64,000 nucleotides of DNA from an uncultured Actinomycetota bacterium (GCA_963801015.1 CAWDCV010000005.1:121580-185579), one strand, 5' to 3'. Positions 27,156 to 64,000 are shown, counted from the stretch's first letter. A program made the numbers and translations. Notes: generated by a model not told the origin, from the sequence alone.

Positions 27156-27592
27156 CCCACCTCCTCCTGTGCCGCAACGTCGAGGGCCGCGGTAATGGTT
27201 CCCGCTACCCGCGCGGCGTGCGCATCGTCGTCGTACTTCCGCCGGGGACCGAGCCACCATCGCAACCCGTCCCCGCGGCGACGCGGGATCACGTGCAGGT
27301 GCAGGTGCGGCACGCTCTGGCTGATGACGTTGTTGATGAGCGTCATGCTGCCGTCGGCTTCGGTTGCGGTGACCACGGCGCGATCGAGCCGCTGCGCGAC
27401 GGCGAAGAAGTGCGACAGCAGGTCTGCGGGCAGGTCCGGCAGGGTCGCTACGTGCACCCGCGGGACGAGCAGGGTGTGGCCGAGGAACAGCGGCTTGACG
27501 TCGAGGAACGCCTCGACGCGGTCGTCGGAGTAGACCCGGTGTGCAGGCGACTCACCGCGAACGATCGCGCAGAACCCGCACGGTTTCGCCAT
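27152..27592 (-). CDS. HIT (histidine triad) family protein
   Basis: MAKPCGFCAIVRGESPAHRVY... and HLHLHVIPR triad. ATG at 27592; the track ORF starts 15 codons earlier. Confidence 0.85.
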   Translation of the reverse strand: MAKPCGFCAIVRGESPAHRVYSDDRVEAFLDVKPLFLGHTLLVPRVHVATLPDLPADLLSHFFAVAQRLDRAVVTATEADGSMTLINNVISQSVPHLHLHVIPRRRGDGLRWWLGPRRKYDDDAHAARVAGTITAALDVAAQEEVG

Positions 27593-27650
27593 GACACACA
27601 GCCTGCCAGCGGGGTAGAAGACAGCGAGATGGGGCACGCTCGCAGCATCT

Positions 27651-27745
27651 AAATGATCACGTATACGTGATCATTGAGGGCGATACGCCTGTTACAGAGG
27701 GCGTATCGCCCTAACTCGAGGCGTATCGCACAGCGTCACGGGCGG
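27651..27745. repeat. Composite palindromic intergenic element, copy 1. It contains a 24-bp perfect palindrome AATGATCACGTATACGTGATCATT, a 12-bp inverted-repeat hairpin GGGCGATACGCC-N10-GGCGTATCGCCC, and a third direct copy GGCGTATCGCAC. About 90% identical to 54499..54593.
   Basis: Aligned by eye to copy 2: palindrome identical; 48 of 56 following positions identical; same order and spacing. Confidence 0.7.
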
Positions 27746-29196
27746 CGGCGCAACGTGCGCGGGAGGCCGCGCAGCACGGCCAGCGGAAGCACCGAGCGCG
27801 GCGCGTACGCCGTGCGCCACAGCCCCGCGTGCGCGGCGGCGTGCATGAGCTGATCGTCGGGGTGGGCGAGGTCGACCGCGGGATTCGCCGGCGACTGCGG
27901 ATTGCACAGGTCGTGCACGAGCAGCGTCGCCATCAGCGTGCTCGCCGTCTCGGGAGCGAACACCTCGAGGCCGAACCGTGGACTGCCCTCGTACGCAGCC
28001 GCCAGCGCCCGGTTGCCCATGACGGAGCGCGTCCGCGTCGTCGGCGCGACCCGCATCGACGTGAGTGTGCCGCTGGCTCGCGCGGTGAGGGCGCGCCAGC
28101 GCTGCAGGTGCTTGGCGAGTGCATAATTCGGGCCCTGCTGAAGCACGAGGCAGTCGTTGATACCGACGTCGCGACCATCGCCGCGGTGCAGCGTGTCGGG
28201 ATAGTTCGGGGTCATCAGTCGCTGGCGGCTCACGAAGCTCGTCGCGCGCTGCATCGCCGTCGGTCTCCAGCGGCGACGAGATTCCTCGACAGCAGCCATC
28301 GGCACCGAGAAGACGTCAGTGGGCGTGGCGAGAAAGCCCAACGAGACGTCGCGTCGATGCTGCAGGTCGCCGACGACAGCATCAATCGCGGCATTGACGA
28401 GCACGTGTTGAGCACCGTCGAGGTAGGTGTAGCTCGCGATTGTCAGCGGACCCGGAAGCTCAGCTAGCCAGGACCGCAGCTCCGGGGTATTCGCGACGAC
28501 GTCGAGCCCTGCTTCGTTTCCGACGAGGGGCAGTACGGCCCGGCCGGCGCCACCACGGACGGTCGCACGGATGCGATCCCACAGCTGCGGGCGTGGAACG
28601 TCGACGAGGGCAACGTCCGCTCCCCAGCGAGTCAGCGGTTGCAGCGGGCTCATCTGCGCGGCGGCGCCGAGCAGCGCGACGCGGTGCCCGTCGAGCCGAA
28701 GCCAGTCGGGGTTGGCCATCACGAGCCGAACCGCCTCCGCCAGCGATGGCTCGACGATACCCGCGGCGACCCACCGGTCGAGCTGTCGATGCAGCGCTGC
28801 GTCGCGGAGCAGATCGGTGCCGTACGGCAGCTCGAGTTCACGGGATCGTTGCTGTGGCTGGCCGCTCACCGTCTCGGTGGCCGGCGCATCCACGCGGAGC
28901 GCCGCCATGCACTCCCCGAGCGGTAACCGCTGCTCGTCCCGCTCGAACTCCATCGACGTGTGTAGCGCCACTAGTGCGGCTTTGGCGGCGGCGACCGCGG
29001 CCGGCGCGTAGACGGCGGCCGCTTCGGCGATGCGTCGCACGTGCCGCGGGTAGGCGTGACGCCAGTCCGGTTCCGCATCGACGGCCGCGCCGAGGTCAGC
29101 GTCGATGGCATGAGCCGCCGCCGCGAAGACGCTGCGACCCATGGCCGTCGTACTCGCCCGGCCCAGCCGTGCATCGAGCGGAAACGTGACTCCCAT
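27736..29196 (-). CDS. Hypothetical protein (486 aa) with a Rossmann-like segment (..[24 protein letters not shown]..)
   Basis: Long ORF with protein-like composition; no family recognised from sequence alone. Divergent from the rhodanese gene. Confidence 0.55.
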
Positions 29197-30147: not shown

Positions 30148-30587
30148 CGGCACCCGCCCTGCCCGCGGCCCTCGGCGAGGTCGTCGAGGAGTTCGCCGCC
30201 GTATCTCCTCGTGATCGACTGCAATTGCTCCTGGAGTACTCGCAGGAGCTGCCATCCCTGCCGGCCGAGCTGGCGGCCAACCGGGACCGGCTCGAGCAGG
30301 TGCACGAGTGCCAGACGCCGTTCTTCGTCGCGACATCGATCGATGACGACGGTCGCGTGCGGCTGTTCTTCGACGCTCCGCCGGAGGCGCCGACGACGCG
30401 CGGTTTCGCCGGCATTCTGCACGCCGGCCTCGACGGGGTGACCGCCGGAGAGGTGTTGGCGGTGCCGGACGAGTTCTACGTCGCGCTCGGCCTCCAGGAG
30501 ACGATCAGCCCGCTGCGGCTGCGCGGCATGACCGCCATCCTGCGTCGCATCAAGCACCAGCTCCAGGAGCGTTCGACGCGCTCGTGA
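30144..30587 (+). CDS. SufE-family sulfur-acceptor protein
   Basis: GTG overlaps the rhodanese stop (GTGA). ..[12 protein letters not shown]....[11 protein letters not shown].. carries the conserved SufE Cys. Confidence 0.78.
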
Positions 30588-30593
30588 CCGGCA

Positions 30594-30689
30594 CCGTGAA
30601 GATCGCCGTGTAGGTCGCCGTGAAGATCGTCGTGTAGGTCGTCGTGTAGGTCGTCGTGAAGATCGTCGTGTGGGTCGTCGTGAGCTTTG
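30594..30689. repeat. Tandem repeat, 8 units of 12 bp, consensus (C/T)CGTG(A/T)AG(A/G)TCG
   Basis: ccgtgaagatcg ccgtgtaggtcg ccgtgaagatcg tcgtgtaggtcg tcgtgtaggtcg tcgtgaagatcg tcgtgtgggtcg tcgtgagctttg. Followed at 30705-30740 by a partial inverted copy (cacgaagatctacacgac). Confidence 0.85.
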
Positions 30690-30748
30690 CGCCGCTTGGC
30701 CGCGTGCTGAATCCACACGAAGATCTACACGACCGCCGCCGTAGGGCT

Positions 30749-33917: not shown

Positions 33918-34646
33918 TCACCTGACGCTGAGCTCGGTGACGCTGGTGGAGCCGTCGATCACGCCCTGAGCGACGTCACCGAGCCGAAGGCCATGACTGC
34001 GGGCGTAGGAACGCAGCATCTCAAATGCCCGGTCGATGCTTACGTTGTGGATCTGCGCCAGCACGCCCTTCGACTGCTCGATGACGATGCGGCTGTTCAG
34101 TGCCCCTTGCAGCTGCTCGGCGAGGACCTCGCTCTGCCGGATGGCGCGTTCCTGCAGCAACCCGATGGTTGCCACGTCTGCCAGCGCCTGCACGATCCGG
34201 ACCTCGCGTGGCTCCAGCCGCCCGATGTCGGTGCCGAACAGGTTCAACGCCCCGATGACGTCCCCTCGATGCCGCAGCGGTATTGCATGCACGGATCGGA
34301 ACCCAGCAGCAACCGCATGGGGAGCAAAGCGCGGCCAGCGGTCGCTCGCCCGACCGAGATCGGCATTCACCACGGGCACACCGGTGGTGAAGGCGTCGTG
34401 ACAGGGGCCTTCGTGCGCCTGCACGCCGAACAGCTCGAGGAGCTTTGCCGACTCGTCGGAGGCGGCCATGAACTGCAATCGACCCTGCGCGTCGACGAGC
34501 AGCAGACCCGCGGCTGTGGCGTCGATCATCTCCGCAGCGCGGGCGGTCACGTTCTCGAGGAACTCGATGAGGTCGAAGTCGTCGACGAGGGTGTCCGCGA
34601 CCTCAACGAACACCTCAGCGAGCCGCTCGGCTTGCAACGTCGGCAT
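33918..34646 (-). CDS. GAF and ANTAR domain-containing RNA-binding regulator
   Basis: GAF N-terminal half plus C-terminal ..LQGALNSRIVIEQSKGVLAQIHNVSIDRAFEMLRSYARSHGLRL (ANTAR). Confidence 0.85.
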   Translation of the reverse strand: MPTLQAERLAEVFVEVADTLVDDFDLIEFLENVTARAAEMIDATAAGLLLVDAQGRLQFMAASDESAKLLELFGVQAHEGPCHDAFTTGVPVVNADLGRASDRWPRFAPHAVAAGFRSVHAIPLRHRGDVIGALNLFGTDIGRLEPREVRIVQALADVATIGLLQERAIRQSEVLAEQLQGALNSRIVIEQSKGVLAQIHNVSIDRAFEMLRSYARSHGLRLGDVAQGVIDGSTSVTELSVR

Positions 34647-47151: not shown

Positions 47152-47341
47152 GGGTGGCCTCGGTTGCGTCGATGACATAAATTGCGGCGTACACGGGAAG
47201 GGAGGTGGTCCAGCGTTGAGTATTTCCTGGACGCGTGAGGTGGCTGTCAGTTAGCCGCCGTCCTTCGGACCGGTGGACTTCCTGATAGCTAGTTCCACCG
47301 CGACCGCCTGATGGCGGCCGGCGAATACCAGGCAGTCACCA

Positions 47342-47410
47342 CGACCCGCGGGTGCTGGGCCTCGTCCTCCCGGCCCTCCTCATGGAGGTAACCCCGCGGG
47401 TCGTTTGCTG
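47342..47410 (+). terminator. Composite hairpin structure ending in a T-tract: 11-bp outer stem CGACCCGCGGG/CCCGCGGGTCG enclosing two small hairpins, then TTTGCTG. Candidate bidirectional terminator between the convergent thioesterase-like and pdxH genes.
   Basis: Outer arms at 47342-47352 and 47393-47403; inner GGGCC-N10-GGCCC and CCTCC-tcat-GGAGG; TTT at 47404-47406; pdxH stop at 47412-47414. Confidence 0.4.
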
Positions 47411-53271: not shown

Positions 53272-54351
53272 CTAGGTCTTGCGCCCGCGGCGCCGACCGA
53301 TGAGGAACGCGATAAGCATCGCCGCGCCGATAGCGAGAAGGGTCGGGCTCGCTCCACCGTCGTCGTCCGCGTCCGGGTCGTTCGTGTCGGTGATGATCCC
53401 GCCCTGGTCGCCTGCCGCAGCGGTATCCGGATCGGTGTCGGTGTCGCCTGATGTATCGCCTGATGTGCCGACCGCTCCCGTAGCGCCCGATCCGCCTCCG
53501 CCGTCAGCTCCCGTCGGAGGGCCGGCGCCGGCGAGCGGGATCTCCCAGATGGTGCTGTTGGCCTGCTCCGTGCCGGAGAGCAGCACCACCCCGCTGGGGC
53601 CGAACGTGACCGACTCGCCCTGGTTCTGCCCCTGGTCCTGGCCCGGGAGTTCCACGGCTCCGAGCGCGTTACCGGCTGGGTCATAGATCCAGGCGCGGCC
53701 ATAATCGCGCAGCACGAACAGCTGACCGTCGGCGGACCAGGTGCCGTCGGTGACGACGGCGGGGACGTCCCGAATGCGGACCAGCTCGTTGACTCCCTCG
53801 GTAGACAGCTGCTCCGGAGCCTCGTACAGCCCGCCGCCGAAGATCTCCTTCGTGGCGATCCACAGTCGACCCGTCACCGGGTTGACGAGCAGCGCCTCGG
53901 CGTCGTGGGGCAGGCCGTCGGGATAGCGCAACACGTATCTGGTGGTGGCGACTCTCGTCTCCCCAAGGTCGGGCTCATCGATGCGGTAGACCGCGATCTC
54001 CTCGCGGAGAACGTCGTTGTCGCCGATGTCGCCGACCCACAGTGTGCTGTTCGGGCCGCGGGCCACCGCCTCCCAGTCGACGTTCTCGGCGTCCTCGAGC
54101 GTGGCGACGGCGACCACACCGCCGTCGAACCCAACGCCGAACAGCTGGGGCGCTCCGCTGTCGTTGTTCATCCAGAGGACGCCCTGATGCCGGCCGCTCA
54201 ACGCGAGGCCGCTGGCCTCGGTGATCCGTGGATCGGAAATGACGAACAGCTCCCCCGAGCCGCCAGGCGGCGACGCGACAGCGGCCGGCGCCCAGCCAGC
54301 AGCGCCCAGGGCGATGCCGCCGATCAGTGCCGCTGCGGCCCAGCGCCTCAC
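53272..54351 (-). CDS. Secreted beta-propeller-like protein with Gly/Asp-rich linker and C-terminal membrane anchor
   Basis: Signal peptide MRRWAAAALIGGIALGAAGWAPAAVAS; repeated blade-like segments; GADGGGGSGATGAVGTSGDTSGDTDTDPD.. linker; C-terminal LLAIGAAMLIAFLIGRRRGRKT. Confidence 0.62.
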   Translation of the reverse strand: MRRWAAAALIGGIALGAAGWAPAAVASPPGGSGELFVISDPRITEASGLALSGRHQGVLWMNNDSGAPQLFGVGFDGGVVAVATLEDAENVDWEAVARGPNSTLWVGDIGDNDVLREEIAVYRIDEPDLGETRVATTRYVLRYPDGLPHDAEALLVNPVTGRLWIATKEIFGGGLYEAPEQLSTEGVNELVRIRDVPAVVTDGTWSADGQLFVLRDYGRAWIYDPAGNALGAVELPGQDQGQNQGESVTFGPSGVVLLSGTEQANSTIWEIPLAGAGPPTGADGGGGSGATGAVGTSGDTSGDTDTDPDTAAAGDQGGIITDTNDPDADDDGGASPTLLAIGAAMLIAFLIGRRRGRKT

Positions 54352-54498
54352 ACGTCCAACCGTACGTGATCTTTGTGTTCGCGCTCGGAGAGCGACCCTG
54401 CCGATTCTGGACGAAACGGTGCGAGAGTGACGTCGTGGTCTACACCCATCTCGGACGTACGGGACTGCAGGTCAGTCGGCTCTGCCTGGTAGCAGCTC

Positions 54499-54593
54499 CG
54501 AAATGATCACGTATACGTGATCATTTCGGGTCATACGCCTGTTGTAGGAGGCGTATCGCCCTCACTCGAGGCGTATCGCACGCCGTGATCACG
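54499..54593. repeat. Composite palindromic intergenic element, copy 2 (GAAATGATCACGTATACGTGATCATTTC palindrome, hairpin GGGTCATACGCC-N10-GGCGTATCGCCC, third copy GGCGTATCGCAC, GTGATCAC)
   Basis: See copy 1 at 27651..27745; same architecture and orientation. Confidence 0.7.
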
Positions 54594-54610
54594 GTCGTCG
54601 CGCCGCGGAG

Positions 54611-54700
54611 TCAGTCGCTCAAGGCTCCGAGCACGACGACGAGAGCGACGAGCGCGAGCAGGATGAGCGGGACCAGCCACCGACGAGTCCGGGGGTTCAC
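54611..54700 (-). CDS. Possible 29-aa single-TM micro-protein
   Basis: GTG 11 nt after the ThpR stop; VNPRTRRWLVPLILLALVALVVVLGALSD. Weak. Confidence 0.2.
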   Translation of the reverse strand: MNPRTRRWLVPLILLALVALVVVLGALSD

Positions 54701-57859: not shown

Positions 57860-58831
57860 CTAACGGGATTTTTCCGCGGGGTGAAGCGGGTCGAGCCACT
57901 CCCGAGCATCGACGGCCCAGGCCGGGCCGTCGATGTCACGTGCGCGCAGCAGATGCGGAGCCTTGACTCGCCGGGTGAGCACCCGGCTGGCGTCGGCCAC
58001 GACGGGCAGCAGCTGTCCCCGAGCCGCTGCAAGGACCCAGTGCTGAATCGCCGGAAAACGCCGGCCCCTGCGCAGACACGATTCAGCGAGCCAACGGTGA
58101 ATGCGGCCTCGATCGACCGTGACGTCATGCAAACGTTCGATACGCCGCACACCCCGCAGAACCTCGGGCACATCGAGCGACGCATTCCCGGCGTGCAGGC
58201 GATACGCGACCAACCGGCGTTGCGCCACCGCCGGCGGTCCGAGCCGCGACAGCCGAAGCCACATCTCCCAGTCCTCGATGTTCCGGAGGCCAGCGTCGAA
58301 TGGACCGGCACGAGCCAGCAGGTTCCGGCTGGCGATCACATTCGAGCCTCCGCCCGGTATGGCGTTGTAGCGAGGTAGCGCGCGAACTGCCTCGTCCGCA
58401 GTTGGCGTGGGCGGCGCGGAGACGGGGTGGAGCGCGACGTCGACGTTGACGACTCCGCAATACGCCCAGTCCCGGCCACTACGTCGGGCGGAGGCGATCT
58501 GCTCGGACAACTTGTCCGGAGCCCAGACGTCGTCGTCGTCGCAGAACGAGATCCAGTGACCGGTGGACGCGCTGATGCCGGCGTTGCGGGCCTGGCTCAC
58601 CCCCTGCGGCAACGAGTGGCGAAGGTGTTGGGTACGGGCGTCGGCAAAGCTGGCGATGACGTCGCCGGTCCCGTCGGACGAGCCGTCGTCCACGACGACG
58701 ACCTCGAGCTCGACGTCGCGCTGTGCCAGCACCGCACGCAGCGTGGTCCGCAGGAGTGTGCTGCGGTTGTGCGTCGGAATGACGACGGTCACCTCGGGCA
58801 CGTCGGAAGCGTATGGCGCGGGTCCTGGCAA
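57860..58831 (-). CDS. Glycosyltransferase family 2 protein (intact member of a four-paralog set)
   Basis: ..VTVVIPTHNRSTLLRTTLRAVLAQRDVELEVVVVDDGSSDGT..; ..FCDDDDVWAPDKL..; single 323-aa ORF. Confidence 0.85.
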   Translation of the reverse strand: MPGPAPYASDVPEVTVVIPTHNRSTLLRTTLRAVLAQRDVELEVVVVDDGSSDGTGDVIASFADARTQHLRHSLPQGVSQARNAGISASTGHWISFCDDDDVWAPDKLSEQIASARRSGRDWAYCGVVNVDVALHPVSAPPTPTADEAVRALPRYNAIPGGGSNVIASRNLLARAGPFDAGLRNIEDWEMWLRLSRLGPPAVAQRRLVAYRLHAGNASLDVPEVLRGVRRIERLHDVTVDRGRIHRWLAESCLRRGRRFPAIQHWVLAAARGQLLPVVADASRVLTRRVKAPHLLRARDIDGPAWAVDAREWLDPLHPAEKSR

Positions 58832-58913
58832 CTCTCCTTCGCAGTGCCCGCGGCCCGATTAGCATGCGGCAATCCGAGGCCGACGACCGAGGTGGATGCG
58901 ACGTGGGGGGACG

Positions 58914-59883
58914 ATGGCCGACAGGGACGGGAAGCGCCCCGTTCTCGTCCTCGGACTGACTCCCCGGACGGGCACCAACTACCTGTGGGATCTGCTCCGG
59001 CTGCACCCTGCATGCGCCGGCGGACGGGAACCGATCCGCGAGGACTTCTTCCTCGAGCACGCACGTCTGCTGGCCGAGTTCGTCAGCGCCGTCCGCAGCC
59101 GTTGGGATCCGGCGTGGGGACAGCTGGACGACGAAACCGTGGCGGACCTTCGGGCCGGCCTCGGGCTCGGCGCTGCTGCGGTTCCTGACCGTCGATTCCG
59201 ATCGCCGGCTCGTCACCAAGAATCCGAGCGTCGCAGGCATCGACCGGGTGTTCGACTTCTTCCCGACGGCACAAGTGATCATCCTGGCCAGAGACGGGCG
59301 TGCCGTCGTGGAGTCGTGTGTCCGATCCTTCGGCTGGGACCTCGATCTCGCCGCCCGACGCTGGGCGACGGCCGCTCGGACGGGGCTTGGTTTCCTGGCC
59401 AGCCGAGGTCCGCATGACCCGAGCGTCCGCCTCGTGCGCTACGAGGACCTGGTTGTCGACTGCCCTGGGCAGATGAGGCGGCTGCTGCGCTTCCTCGACC
59501 TGGACACCGCCGAGTACGACTTCGCGGCTGCTGAGCACCTTCCAGTGCGAGGATCCTCCGTTTTCCACGGCGGAAAGCCGCAGGTGCATTGGGATCCCGT
59601 CGAACGAACGGACGGCTTCGACCCGCTGCGTCGCTCGGAGCACTGGAGCCTCCCTCAACATGAACGCTTCGCCTGGCTCGCCGGCCGCGAGCAGGTCGCC
59701 CTGGGCTACTCCTTGGACGCGGCGACGCCGGTGACACCGAGCGGGCGCGCACATCAGACCTGGCTCAGCACCCAGTGGCGGATCCGCCGGGGCGCGAAGC
59801 TCGCCGAGTACCGGACGCGCGGCTGGCTCGGGCCCCCAACCCGGCCGCTGCGCAGGCGACTTGGGCTGGCACATGAGTCCTGA
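58914..59883 (+). pseudogene. Sulfotransferase-family protein with a +1 frameshift near 59169
   Basis: Frame 0: MADRDGKRPVLVLGLTPRTGTNYLWDLL (PAPS 5'PSB-like) ..DLRAGLG. Frame +1 from 59170: ALLRFLTVDSDRRLVTKNPSVAGIDRVFDFFPTAQVIILARDGRAVVES... (3'PB region). The two pieces form one sulfotransferase. Confidence 0.68.
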
Positions 59884-60797
59884 GGTCTCCGTGGTGATCC
59901 CGACCCACAACCGACGGGAGCTGCTCGCGCTCACGTTGCGGACGGTCTGCGAGCAGAAGGACGTCGACCTCGAAGTCATCGTGGTCGACGACGGCTCGAG
60001 GGAGGAGGCTGCCCGCGAGGTCGTCGGAGCCCGCCAGGACCCTCGGGTGCGTCTCCTGCGAAACGCCACGCCGATGGGCGTCAGCGCCAGCCGCAATCGC
60101 GGCGTAGAGGAGGCCGTCGGGCGCTGGGTGGCGTTCTGTGACGACGACGACCTGTGGGCCCCGCAGAAGCTGCGCGAGCAGCTAGCGCAGCGGAGCAGGC
60201 CAGCCGCTCGTGGGTGTACGCGGGCGCGGTCAAGATCGACGATGCCCTGCGCGTCATCGGTGGCGAGCCGCCCCAGCCGCCCGGAAGTCGTGCATCGGCG
60301 GTTGCCCCGGTGGACCCTGGTCCCGGGCGGCTGCTCGGGTGTGATCGCTCGCCGGGATCTCGTTCGGGACGTGGGTGGCTTCGACCCCGACCTGGTCAAT
60401 CTCGCCGACTGGGACCTGTGGAGCCGCCTGGCTGGGTACGGTCCGCCCGCGGCCGTGCCGTTGCCACTCGTCGGCTATCGAATCCACGGCGGCAACTCCT
60501 CGCAGGACACCAGCCTCGTGCTGCGGGAGCTCGACCGGCTCGACGGGCGCTACGGCGTCCGCGTGGATCGGGCCGCCGTCCATCACTATCTGGCGTGGGT
60601 GTCCTTGCGGGGAGGGCGTCGGCGGCAGGCGGGCCGGGCACTTCCTGCAGGCAGCCGGACGCGGCGATGTCGTCGGCGTCGCCCGCAGTCTGTCGGCGCT
60701 CGCCCGGGGTCACCTCGCCGGACCGGCTCGGCCGCTCCCCCATGCCGAGTGGCGGTATGCGGCCGATCGGTGGTTGGAGCCGCTGCGATGGGGCTAA
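59873..60797 (+). pseudogene. GT2 glycosyltransferase paralog with three frameshifts (about 60190, 60283, 60630)
   Basis: Segments in three frames (..FCDDDDLWAPQKLREQLAQ | AEQASRSWVYAGAVKIDDALRVIGGEPPQPP | EVVHRRLPRWTLVPGG...LRGGRR | AGHFLQAAGRGDVV..PLRWG*) align colinearly with the intact paralog 57860..58831. Confidence 0.68.
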
Positions 60798-61752
60798 CCG
60801 AGCTCATCGAGCCACGCCTGAGCCGTGGAGAAGTAGGCGGCCAGTGCAGCGTCCGGTACCGGCGGCGCCGGGAACGGCAGGTGCATCCGGCGGGCCAGCT
60901 GCCCGCTGCGGGCGCCGAGCAGCTGGCCGACGTCGAGCAGCAGCGCATCGCGCCGGTACGGCGGGGACAGCCGGGCAGTTCGCGCGTACCAACGCAGCGC
61001 CTCCCCGCGACGGCCCGCTCGCGCCGAGAGTCGGCCGAGGTGTCGGTACAGCGTGACGCGGTCCAGCGGTCCGCCGTACCTGCGCTCGATCTCGAGCGCT
61101 CCCCTGAGGATCTCCGACGTCACCAGAGACGAGCCTCGATCGTGCACGCGGTAGCCGACGAGGGGAGCAGGGACCCAACGCGGCGTCGAGAGCCGGCTCA
61201 ACCGCACCCACATATCCCAGTCCTCGGTGTTGCGGAGTCGACCATCGAATGGACCGGCGCGCTCGAACAGGCTGTGGTGGACGAGCACGCCGGAGCCACC
61301 GCCGGGTACGACGTTGCGCCGCGGCAGGAGCGCGGCCACCTGCTCCGGAGGAAGGGGCAACGTTCCCCCCACGACCCGACCCGTGACGTCGACGTTCACC
61401 GAACCGGTGTAGACCCAGCCCGCCCATCCATCGTCGGTCGCGCGCAGTTGCTCCGTGAGCTTGTCCGGAGCCCAGACGTCGTCGTCGTCGCAGAACGCGA
61501 CCCAATCGCCACCTGCCGCAGCCGCCCCCGGTTGCGCGCGGCACTCACGCCCTGGGCGGTCTCGTTGCGCAGCGGTCGGATCCGGTCGTCGGCGACCTGT
61601 TCCAGGACGGCCACCACCTGCCCTGGCGGCGATCCGTCGTCGACCACCACGATCTCGAGGTCGACGTCCCGCTGGCTCCTGATCGAGCACAGCGTGTGGC
61701 GGAGGAGGTGCGCGCGGTCGTGCGTGGGGACGACGACGCTCACCGCAACCAT
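60794..61752 (-). pseudogene. GT2 glycosyltransferase paralog with one frameshift in a G5/C5 run near 61527
   Basis: N-terminus MVAVSVVVPTHDRAHLL...VSAARNRG (ORF 61396..61752), then AAAAGGDWVAFCDDDDVWAPDKLTEQ... continues in the frame of ORF 60794..61903. Confidence 0.68.
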
Positions 61753-61778
61753 CCGCGCACGGTAGCGAGCCGAGCCCG

Positions 61779-63042
61779 GTGACCCGAGCCCGTCCCGGAA
61801 CGGCGCTGCTGCCCGCCGGAGACCGGTTCGAGGACTTCTTCGACAAGGTCGGCGTGACTCTGGAGTCGTTCCGCCACGAGCAGACCGGCGGCTGGCTGTT
61901 CAACTACGTCGAGGCGTTGCGCAGCGGCGGCTGCGACACGGCGCTCGTGTTCATGTCCGCCCGCGTGACCGGCCCCGTCCGCTTCGTCCACCAGCCCACC
62001 GGCTGCCGGGTCAGCGTCCTGCCCAGCCCATCGTGCATCGCAAGCTACGGGCGGCTCGATGGCGCTTCGCCCCCGAATCGCGGCTGCTCCGGTCGCTGGA
62101 GGCGTACGTCGCGACGCCGCCGCGCGCGCTGTCGCGAGAGCTGCAGCGGCTGGACTGCACTGTGTTGCTCTGCCAGGAGTACGAGTCGGCGCGGTTCGAC
62201 GTGTGCGTCATGCTCGGCCGCCTGACCCGGCCGCCCGGTGTTCGCCACGTACCAGGGCGCCCAGGACGGCCACAGTCCCTGGGAGCGCCCGGTGCGTCGG
62301 CTGGCGATGCGGTGGTGCCAGGGAGTGATCGTCGGGAGCGCGGTTGAACGAGAGCGGGTCCGGGCTCGCTATCGCATGCCCGCGGAGAAGCTGGCGCCGA
62401 TCCCGAACCCGCTGGACGTGCGGCGCTGGGACCAGGAGACCAGAACGAGGCCCGTGAAGCGCTGGGGCTCCCGCTCGAGCGACGCATCGTCGTCTGGCAC
62501 GGGCGGGTGCAGATCGAGCGCAAGGGCCTGGACGTGCTGCTCGAGCGCCTGGCGGCTGCTGTACGCCGCCCGGCCGGACCACCGCCACTGCTCCTTCTCG
62601 TCGGTTCCGGCCGGGACGCCGAGGAGCTGCGTCGGCGACTGCGCGACCCGGCGCTCGGTGGCGTCATCTGGGTCGACGAGTACGTGCAGGACCGTGATCG
62701 GTTGTGGCGCTACCTCGCCGCGGCCGACGTCGCCACGCTGCCCTCCCGGCACGAAGGCTTCGCGCTCGCGGTGCTGGAGGCGATGGCCTGTGGGCTGCCC
62801 GTGGTCGCCGCCGACGTCTCCGGGGTACGGACCTGCTCGAGGCGGCGGCCGGGGTGGAGACGGGAATCGTGGTGCCGCCCGACGACGCCGAGGCGCTCGC
62901 CGCCGCGCTCGGGCTCCTGATCGACGACCCCGACCGCAGCCGTCGCCTCGGAGCGGCGGCGCGAGCCGTCGCCGAGTCCTTCTCGCTCGAGCAGGTCGGC
63001 AAGCAGCTCGCCGCCGTCCTCGTACCCGGGTCCGGGCGATGA
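61779..63042 (+). pseudogene. GT4 (group-1) glycosyltransferase with at least 4 frameshifts (about 62010, 62235, 62432, 62825)
   Basis: GT4 pieces are spread over frames: N-domain (..FVHQPTGCRVSVLPSPS), ..LEAYVATPPRALSRELQRLDCTVLLCQEYESARFDV.., ..VIVGSAVEREWVRARYRMPAEKLAPIPNPLDVRRWD | PGDQNEAREALGLPLERRIVVWHGRVQIERKGLDVLLERL...HEGFALAVLEAMACGLPVVAADVSG | GTDLLEAAAGVETGIVVPPDDAEALAAAL... Confidence 0.62.
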
Positions 63043-63072
63043 GCGGGGGATCCACGCCGACGAGAACCCGAA

Positions 63073-64000
63073 GTGACCGTGGTGGTGCCGACGAAGGACC
63101 GGGGCGCGCTGCTGAGTCAGACGCTGCGCAGCATTCGCTGGCAGCGGGACGTCGACTTCGAGGCGCTCGTGGTCGACGACGGCTCGATCGACAGCGAGTT
63201 GGTCCGGCGGGTGGTCGCGGATCTCGACGACGCCCGGTTCCGCGTCCTGCGGAACGAGACGAGCCGAGGCGTCAGCGCCGCGCGCAACCGTGGAGCGGCG
63301 GAGGGAGCGGGGCGGTGGGTGGCGTTCTGCGACGACGACGATCTGTGGGCGCCGGACAAGCTCGCGAAGCAGCTGGCGGCCGTCCGCGGGTCGGGGGCGG
63401 ATTGGGTGTACGTCGGGTCCGTCAACGTGACGATGCGCAACCGGGTCGTGGGCGGGGAGCTCCGCCACCTCCGCCCGCCGAGGTCGTCGAGCAGCTGGAG
63501 GAGCACAACGTCGTCCCGGGAGGAGCCTCCGGCGTGCTCGCGCGCCGGAGCGTGCTGCAGGACGTGGGCGGCTTCGACCCCGCCCTGCAGCCGCTGGCCG
63601 ACTGGGATCTGTGGTTGCGGGTCCTGCACGTGTCAGCGCCCGCCTGTGTTGCCGAGCCGCTCGTGGCCTACCGGGTCCACGGCACGAACATGTCGCTGGA
63701 CACTCGACGCGTCGAAGCGGACTTCGCTGTGGTGGCGGGGCGAAACCCGCGGGCGAACCGCGCGGTCCTCTACCGATACCTGGGCTGGTGGTCCATCCGG
63801 GTCGGCCGCCACGCGGACGCAGCTCGCCTCTTCCTTCGGGGGGCGGCAGAGCGGGACGCGCGCTACCCGGTCGACCTCGCCCGGCAGGACCTGATCTATC
63901 TCGCTCGGCAGGCCGCGGATCGCGCCCGCGTTCTCCTCCGGCCAGGCCGCCCGGCGCGGCGCCCGCCGGTCGCCGCCGTCGTCGAGCACGCGGACTGGCG
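63073..64000 (+). pseudogene. GT2 glycosyltransferase paralog with one frameshift in a C-run near 63465; runs off the window end
   Basis: MTVVVPTKDRGALLSQTLRSIRWQRDVDFEALVVDDGS...FCDDDDLWAPDKLAKQ..VVGGEL, then PPPPAEVVEQLEEHNVVPGGASGVLARR...ADWDLWLRVLHVS... in the -1 frame to position 64000. Confidence 0.68.

Follow-up and report, generated by a model that had tools for sequence, protein, structure and literature searches.

The question raised by this locus is why an elaborate palindromic repeat should occur twice within one stretch of an actinobacterial genome, both times a short distance upstream of a minus-strand gene. The stretch analysed here, referred to in its entirety as the window, comprises 64,000 nucleotides (nt) with a GC content of 68 % from an uncultured Actinomycetota bacterium, and labels of the form L0xx denote related or matching loci that were compared with it. 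An initial annotation had described the repeat as an operator array for a dimeric regulator, a dispersed element resembling a miniature inverted-repeat transposable element (MITE), or a terminator plus promoter module. The feature is real and was correctly described, although reading it as an operator was for the most part a misinterpretation: compared with near-identical relatives both copies are insertions and not conserved promoter DNA, and a mobile terminator-like hairpin is more likely than the binding site of a regulator. The evidence tilts towards an undescribed, small, non-coding, non-autonomous inserted palindromic repeat of the class that includes repetitive extragenic palindromic (REP), ERIC and MITE-like sequences, probably serving as a terminator or insulator at gene 3′ ends.

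The composite element and its insertion sites

Each copy of the composite element is ~95-110 nt long and consists of a perfect 24-bp palindrome, a hairpin with 12-bp arms (hairpin 1) and a third copy of the arm, arranged in the same order and orientation; a scan of the window confirmed these coordinates (Table 1). The palindrome AATGATCACGTATACGTGATCATT has exact matches at these two positions only, against 0.00 expected from shuffled sequence, and no further match was found in the window even at ≤ 3 mismatches. Copy 1 has a perfect 12-bp hairpin, built from the arms GGGCGATACGCC (27678-27689) and GGCGTATCGCCC (27700-27711) around a 10-nt loop, and the third direct 12-mer GGCGTATCGCAC comes after it. 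Copy 2 repeats this layout (12-mers at 54528-54539, 54550-54561 and 54570-54581) with 2 mismatches in its first arm, GGGTCATACGCC, and a palindrome that extends to 32 bp. The 12-mer by itself shows no enrichment across the window (with ≤ 2 mismatches, 30 matches versus 25.8 expected), and only the five exact 12-mer copies inside the elements matter. The identity of about 90 % originally given for the two copies is slightly high, the value being 82-88.9 % depending on the method of alignment (88.9 % over 81 nt by BLAST; 82 % over 105 nt in a gapped alignment; 85 % without gaps between 27642-27736 and 54492-54586 with a repeat finder). Both strands of the element fold far better than shuffled sequence (z -4.4 to -6.2), and hairpin 1 is among the strongest 3′-flank hairpins of the window, for which the median is -18.4 kcal/mol.

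Copy 1 lies between a gene of unknown function encoding 486 amino acids (aa; 27736-29196, minus strand) and the minus-strand HIT-PGPGW gene pair. The HIT gene most likely starts, as in its relatives, at the ATG at 27592, which places the palindrome 59 nt upstream, in agreement with the ~60 bp first reported. The reported overlap between the last 12-mer and the upstream open reading frame (ORF) was not borne out, since the stop codon occupies 27736-27738 and the 12-mer lies 4 nt downstream of it. Copy 2 lies between a small ORF of 29 aa, which comes after the LigT and MDMPI genes, and a minus-strand gene for a secreted protein of 359 aa (53272-54351). The closest relatives of the window are uncultured ‘Actinomycetes bacterium’ assemblies, named genera reaching no more than ~57 % protein identity among the homologues listed.

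Comparison with these relatives identified both filled and empty sites. At the first site, L013 (94 % nucleotide identity) and L014 (~77 %) carry an opposite-strand Cupin_2 gene between the 486-aa gene and the HIT gene, and the element is absent from both. BLAST homology with the window breaks at 27755/27617 for L013 and at 27760/27617 for L014, and in L013 the cupin gene and the 486-aa gene meet at the junction TAGCGCGCGGG. The segment found in the window at this position also replaces the last six codons of the 486-aa gene, whose product ends in LRRRP instead of LLPAR, while the cupin gene is reduced to its HIT-proximal start region and the fragment GAGATGGGGCA.

At the second site the junctions can be read base by base. 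L020 (95 % nucleotide identity) has the LigT gene, the small ORF, a complete opposite-strand aldo/keto reductase (AKR) gene of 323 aa and then the 359-aa gene, and its uninterrupted sequence at the insertion point (marked by a slash) is TAGCAGC/GCGGCGGAT-TCA. The order in the window is AKR codons 1-18, TAGCAGC, the element, the native spacer GCGCCGCGGAG (GCGGCGGAT in L020) and the stop codon of the small ORF. The element thus sits within a 13-nt spacer between two convergent stop codons, and since the intact AKR 3′ end of L020 contains no element sequence it is foreign to this site. The body of the AKR gene was lost in a separate deletion with a CTGG-type junction. The element is likewise absent from this position in L016, L019 and L022, and L015 (96 % aa identity) has the AKR 5′ end where the window has the element, its contig ending at that point. 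AKR loss has also occurred without the element, L016 retaining an 84-aa remnant and L019 and L022 having no AKR gene, for which reason we do not attribute the loss to the element. In lineages with neither the AKR gene nor the element, the position behind the small ORF is occupied by a small GC-rich hairpin.

Only the first ~18-20 codons of each deleted gene, cupin and AKR, have been kept in the window, and in L013 the start codons of the cupin and HIT genes are only ~37 nt apart. This retention is best explained if the kept codons contain the promoters of the divergent downstream genes, so that these promoters are most likely located in the 5′ remnants of the deleted genes and not in the element. 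A promoter scan identified no canonical sigma-70 promoter at either element. The promoter half of the proposed terminator plus promoter module has no support, while its terminator half is plausible from the position of the element and the stability of its hairpins, although a U-tract is missing.

A third composite copy was identified in L017, a JGI metagenome sequence with flanks 73-76 % identical to the window, again at the second site in the interval between the small ORF and the 359-aa gene. Its hairpin 1, GGGCGATGCTCG-N10-CGAGCATCGCCC, keeps 12/12 pairs, three of them through changes on both sides relative to the window copies, and two of these three changes are also present in the third 12-mer. 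The palindrome by comparison differs from that of the window at 2/24 positions. The two window copies show 0/25 differences in the palindrome and 13/64 in the rest of the element (binomial P = 0.003), the corresponding values between window and L017 being 2/25 and 15-19/64, and the palindrome is therefore significantly more conserved than the remaining element. Together the compensatory pairs and the low divergence of the palindrome suggest that structure is what is maintained in hairpin 1 and sequence in the palindrome, although the covariation evidence is thin, coming from three composite copies only, with control shuffles equalling the observed score in 18/500 trials. A reading of the self-palindromic 12-mers (GGCG-ATA-CGCC) as three protein-binding sites was rejected, as the L017 12-mers are no longer self-palindromic yet still pair. 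With respect to the co-directional genes on either side, the three composite copies are all oriented alike, and each lies ≤ 15 nt from a deletion endpoint. No further composite copies were found in the window and ~110 kb of related loci by an nhmmer search with a profile of the three copies.

The palindrome core in Actinopolymorpha alba

We scanned one genome per species (185,579 species, 596 Gb) for exact matches to the central 20-mer of the palindrome, which was found only in Actinopolymorpha alba DSM 45243, a member of the Propionibacteriales and of a lineage unrelated to the window organism, at 11 places; BLAST added a twelfth copy with 1 mismatch. An exact-match scan is blind to diverged copies such as that of L017, and these copy numbers and the host range are accordingly lower bounds. 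From the size of the collection ~0.004 chance matches would be expected for one 24-mer, so the 24/24 match to 11 A. alba copies is not due to chance. None of the A. alba loci overlaps the window and their flanks are unrelated to the window element, only the core of 24-26 nt being in common.

All 12 A. alba copies are intergenic and lie 3′ of a gene end, mostly at a distance of 27-74 nt (one at ~100 nt and one at 246 nt). Three are located between convergent genes and none between divergent genes; five are within 370 nt upstream of a co-directional gene, and beyond four others no gene start is called. The 12 copies are flanked by unrelated housekeeping genes, among them purL, ilvD, murB, gpsA, nucS, an AKR gene, an APH gene, ABC transporters and several regulators. 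Landing at gene 3′ ends is thus common to both window sites and to A. alba. Three base pairs flanking the A. alba core covary (CCAAAT..ATTTGG, CTGAAT..ATTCAG, CAGAAT..ATTCTG), and some copies are embedded in an imperfect hairpin of ~110 nt with the ends TTCAAAACTCC/GGAGTTTTGAA while others are in shorter GC-rich stems. The most complete ~110-nt hairpin, at L010 1545-1660, has 11-bp terminal inverted repeats (TTCAAAACTCC/GGAGTTTTGAA) with the 24-nt palindrome at its apex, and degraded versions of it are present in L001, L005, L007 and L011.

The identity of the core across orders, together with its restriction to a single Actinopolymorpha species, suggests horizontal spread rather than a host regulon. 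Scans of viral contigs with the core and hairpin 1 gave 0 matches, and BLAST of the whole element against plasmids and phages gave none. A single metagenome match to the 20-mer (L012) is in lower-GC sequence with no surrounding similarity and was judged to be due to chance. Transfer of the palindrome together with the AKR gene was considered because an AKR gene precedes one A. alba copy, but with only 31 % identity between the two AKR proteins we judged this a coincidence. A sequencing adapter or linker artefact was also rejected, given that all copies are intergenic, that their stems have locus-specific complementary flanks and that a mutated homologue is present in the independent assembly L017.

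A probable mobile hairpin weighed against other explanations

In the explanation we prefer, the element would have entered the 3′-end junctions of convergent genes at both sites: at site 1 where the stops of the cupin and 486-aa genes overlap, and at site 2 within the 13-nt spacer that directly follows the AKR TAG stop. Loss of the opposite-strand gene would then have occurred, leaving ~18-20 codons that probably carry the promoter of the downstream gene. The invariant 24-nt palindrome is most likely a recognition hairpin for a protein acting in trans, such as a transposase, a nuclease or another hairpin binder, and may have come to be shared with the A. alba repeat family by horizontal transfer. 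The second module would be the GC-rich 12-bp hairpin, kept by structure and not by sequence. Both strands would be transcribed, one following the upstream gene and the other from the orphaned promoter and ~20-codon stub of the deleted gene, and the two hairpins would probably halt or stabilise transcripts where the upstream gene ends, besides blocking antisense read-through from the orphaned promoter. The net effect would be that of a bidirectional terminator or insulator without a U-tract between genes that are now co-directional. Given the stability of the hairpins and the presence of a GC-rich hairpin in lineages without AKR gene and element, such a role appears the most economical function.

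The element shares features with several known classes, but it matches no Rfam family and is neither a tagged REP nor a textbook MITE. As in REPs and REPINs, the palindromes are short (24-32 nt), extragenic (15/15 copies intergenic), close to gene 3′ ends or convergent junctions and near-invariant within a genome, and as in REPINs some A. alba copies form the apex of a ~110-nt imperfect hairpin. The roles proposed for REPs in termination and mRNA stabilisation are similar to that suggested here (PMC3733652). The same source defines REPs by an unpaired GTAG/CGTC tag at the end of the hairpin, and its text contains 0 occurrences of Actinobacteria (PMC3733652). In an alignment of the 15 copies neither a GTAG nor a CGTC unpaired tag is conserved, the flanking bases instead extending the stem; other differences are that the palindrome is perfect and strand-symmetric, that copy number is low and that no RAYT is encoded among the 40 flanking proteins.

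Correia and ERIC elements affect termination and RNA stability, and the composite element resembles these and MITEs in being ~100 nt long, non-coding, strongly structured and polymorphic for insertion between close relatives. In substance the MITE-like interpretation is borne out, by the empty sites of L013 and L014 (site 1) and L020 (site 2), by the homologous copy in a third genome and by the dispersed core in A. alba. Convincing terminal inverted repeats, a target-site duplication and a related transposase were not found for the window element, and across genomes it is the central 24-nt core and not the ends that is in common. In A. alba, one intact copy of subfamily A is bounded by terminal inverted repeats of 11 bp, TTCAAAACTCC. 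We know of no transposase related to the element.

Like the U-tract-less terminators of high-GC actinobacteria, the element lies directly downstream of stop codons, its hairpins (-14 to -29 kcal/mol) are comparable to those of other 3′ flanks in the window, and a stable hairpin is present within ~100 nt downstream of the stop. The A-tract/T-tract symmetry of AAATGA...TCATTT would permit action in both directions. In contrast to ordinary terminators, which have no invariant 24-nt sequence across loci or orders, the palindrome is invariant, and its stem is AT-rich. CIRCE, the operator of HrcA, is also a long perfect inverted repeat that is identical in distant taxa and possibly acts at both DNA and RNA level, but in every genome it belongs to orthologous chaperone promoters, whereas the palindrome is tied to no gene family and is absent at orthologous sites of close relatives. 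Searches of full-text literature gave no match to an 18-mer of the element and nothing specific on REPs or MITEs in actinomycetes.

A number of observations weigh against a mobile hairpin. No transposase or recombinase was identified among the 40 proteins flanking the copies in the window and at the 8-kb A. alba loci, and the precisely defined second site has no target-site duplication (TAGCAGC on one side, GCGCCGCGGAG on the other). The window elements lack convincing terminal inverted repeats, only TGATCACG recurring at the far end of copy 2. No U-tract follows the hairpins, a terminator scan was blank at both elements, and only a TTT is found 3′ of the palindrome. Only 3 composite copies are present in ~175 kb of the lineage, too few to establish a dispersed family in the genome of the window organism, and the presence of the site 2 copy in the window and L017 but not in closer relatives requires repeated targeting, recombination or precise loss. 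Intra-strand templated repair can also maintain the symmetry of hairpin arms, without selection. Finally, copy 1 is bordered by GCAGC (27642-27646) and GCGGCGG (27742-27748), which are the native flanks of site 2 (L020 ~725-740). Templating of copy 1 from site 2, with a few flanking bases carried along, would account for these borders, as would a TAG-C...GCGG-type target preference just after a stop, and a templated copy fits them at least as well as clean transposition.

These borders, uninterrupted in L020, are one argument for a local scar, whereby the element arose once in the decaying AKR 3′ end at site 2 by template-switching duplication and inverted duplication and was copied once to site 1 by illegitimate recombination or templated repair, the A. 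alba match being of unrelated origin. Such a history would also account for there being only two copies in 64 kb and none in most relatives, for the loose resemblance of the L016 AKR 3′ end (GGCGTACGCC) to the 12-mer and for the missing target duplication, terminal inverted repeat and transposase. We nevertheless consider it unlikely. The 24/24 match to 11 A. alba copies cannot be due to chance, the element is present in L017 while absent from lineages closer to the window, the intact AKR 3′ end of L020 carries no element sequence, and the window copies differ by 18 % overall but by 0 in the core.

We regard as quite unlikely an operator in which a dimeric factor controlling the HIT-PGPGW operon and the 359-aa gene would bind the 24-bp palindrome as a high-affinity duplex site, perhaps together with the three 12-mers at their spacing of 20-22 bp. 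The palindrome is perfect, of typical length for an operator and located 59 nt upstream of the HIT start and ~150 nt upstream of the 359-aa gene, the 12-mers start ~two helical turns apart, and 5/12 A. alba copies are ≤ 370 nt upstream of a co-directional gene. Conservation of the palindrome well beyond that of the rest of the element implies sequence-specific recognition, and one further fact does favour recognition of the palindrome by a sequence-specific protein: just before the start of the 359-aa gene all relatives have a native motif, AAAGATCACGTA, that matches the half-site at 11/12 bases. However, the orthologous intergenic regions of L013 and L014 (site 1) and of L020 (site 2) have no palindrome, and L016, L019 and L022 likewise lack it at site 2, where L017 alone carries it. 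The initial annotation itself had named absence from orthologous intergenic regions as refuting, and an operator reading fails that test in the closest relatives. Hairpin 1 maintains pairing through three compensatory changes, the L017 12-mers having changed in sequence while keeping complementarity, and the flanking bases of the palindrome covary so as to lengthen the hairpin, which a duplex-binding factor would not need. The A. alba copies, 12/12 downstream of a gene 3′ end with 0 between divergent genes, 3 between convergent genes and 4 without a gene start beyond, have neighbours with no common functional theme, and the absence of the exact 20-mer from all other scanned species, other actinomycetes included, would be odd for a regulon site.

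A more far-reaching version of the mobile hairpin, which we consider quite doubtful, is a gene-replacing mobile terminator. An undescribed trans-acting enzyme that has moved between Actinomycetes orders, with the 24-nt hairpin as its portable recognition module, would plant the hairpin beyond stop codons at convergent junctions, and the palindrome would then promote loss of the neighbouring gene, as proposed from the proximity (≤ 15 nt) of all three composite copies to a deletion endpoint. If this were true, convergent gene pairs would be rewired into co-directional ones.

A role as an RNA switch, the 3′ arm pairing with one or other of two direct repeats upstream of it (segment 1 or segment 2) and thereby controlling read-through into the downstream gene, or as a small RNA transcribed from the orphaned promoter of the deleted gene, appears very improbable. 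The minimum-free-energy fold of the copy 1 minus strand does pair segment 1 with segment 3 and not segment 2 with segment 3, two of the three compensatory changes of L017 recur in segment 1, and a GAF-ANTAR antitermination regulator is encoded in the window. On the other hand, Rfam 15 contained no match at the gathering threshold and, with E values up to 10, none for copy 1 and only chance-level eukaryotic matches for copy 2; the pairing state of segment 3 has no effect on the palindrome hairpin and no terminator/antiterminator logic is apparent; hairpin 1 is damaged in copy 2; and only three sequences are available, while close relatives manage the same genes without the element. ANTAR targets are short stems with hexaloops, and the element was rejected as a target of the GAF-ANTAR regulator because its hairpins are unlike the ANTAR dual hairpins and have no Rfam match. 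A role in chromosome organisation, as a site bound by a nucleoid or segregation protein and comparable to matS or to Noc- and SlmA-binding sites, is extremely improbable: the palindrome is dispersed and sequence-invariant with about a dozen copies in the A. alba genome, but it is strictly intergenic, biased to 3′ ends and situated within longer hairpins, whereas sites of the matS, Noc and SlmA type fall freely inside genes, and it was found in one species only among those scanned and is polymorphic between 95 %-identical relatives.

REPs, REPINs and MITEs have been the subject of much work in Proteobacteria, but descriptions from high-GC actinomycetes are scarce, and for the present element filled and empty sites are resolved to the base pair. 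It places a structure-conserved hairpin beside a sequence-invariant one, with a 24-nt core common to an uncultured Actinomycetes lineage and A. alba DSM 45243; as the latter is culturable, the recognising protein and any terminator activity become open to experiment. There is also a warning for annotation, namely that a long perfect palindrome upstream of a gene need not be an operator and here marks an insertion together with the remains of a deleted neighbour.

Coordinates and neighbouring features

Table 1 Positions in the window of the composite element, its parts and adjoining features
Feature	Position	Strand	Remarks
Site 1 segment	27618..27754	-	137 bp replacing 369 bp of L013 (cupin gene and last 6 codons of 486-aa gene)
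Cupin remnant GAGATGGGGCA	27626..27636	+	~codons 17-20 of L013 cupin, in divergent HIT promoter region
Copy 1, composite element	27642..27741	-	extent homologous to copy 2 and L017
Copy 1, palindrome	27652..27675	.	10-bp stem, TATA loop; fold -14.2 kcal/mol
Copy 1, hairpin 1	27678..27711	.	GGGCGATACGCC-N10-GGCGTATCGCCC, perfect 12-14 bp stem; -25 to -29 kcal/mol; three compensatory pairs versus L017
Copy 1, third 12-mer	27720..27731	+	GGCGTATCGCAC, direct copy of 3′ arm; alternative arm partner on minus strand
Native motif AAAGATCACGTA	54363..54374	-	11/12 bases as palindrome half-site, just upstream of 359-aa gene start; found in all relatives examined, whether or not they carry the element
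AKR remnant	54435..54496	+	codons 1-18 (54435-54488) and own stop/flank TAGCAGC (54490-54496); element starts directly after
Site 2 segment (extent of copy 2)	54490..54599	-	110 bp replacing 919 bp of L020 (AKR codon 19 to stop)
Copy 2, palindrome	54502..54525	.	32 bp when extended (54498-54529); -23.0 kcal/mol
Copy 2, hairpin 1	54528..54561	.	GGGTCATACGCC-N10-GGCGTATCGCCC, 2 stem mismatches
Copy 2, third 12-mer	54570..54581	+	
Copy 2, 10-bp palindrome CGTGATCACG	54584..54593	.	far end, copy 2 only; has TGATCACG in common with main palindrome arms
29-aa small ORF	54611..54700	-	single helix, conserved; element in its 3′ flank, same place in window and L017

The 29-aa small ORF upstream of copy 2, VNPRTRRWLVPLILLALVALVVVLGALSD, is kept with conservative substitutions in L016, L017, L019, L020 and L022. 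It invariably follows CTAGGGTCG and in each case stands just upstream of the 359-aa secreted gene, and probably represents a real, unannotated small membrane protein. Downstream of the element, the sequence AAGATCACGTACGGTKGG (54355-54374, minus strand) precedes the GTG start of the 359-aa gene by 8-25 nt and shows no variation among seven relatives; the 11/12 match to the palindrome half-site is formed by its first 12 bases. It may serve as a promoter or leader element, or may point to the protein by which the palindrome is recognised. In L019 (3520-3560) this pre-start motif is doubled (GATCACGTAGG-TTAAG-GTCACGTACGG), possibly through a long-read assembly error, as many genes on the contig are frameshifted.

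The GAF-ANTAR protein, an RNA-binding antitermination regulator, is encoded at 33918-34646 (minus strand) within a stretch of ~33.9-36.3 kb that has no counterpart in L014 and L018. At 30583-30690 tandem 12-nt units in at least 7 overlapping copies lie within an ORF (30476-30718, minus strand) and encode His/Asp-rich repeats, HDDLHDDLHDDLHGDLHG. We further identified a tRNA at 552-624 of the window, an Rfam match at 47191-47409 (plus strand) to the actinobacterial small RNA Ms_IGR-5 (86 bits, E = 1e-17), and a diverged paralogous duplication of ~3 kb in the glycosyltransferase/sulfotransferase region, where 58232-60421 and 61181-63614 share 70-75 % identity.

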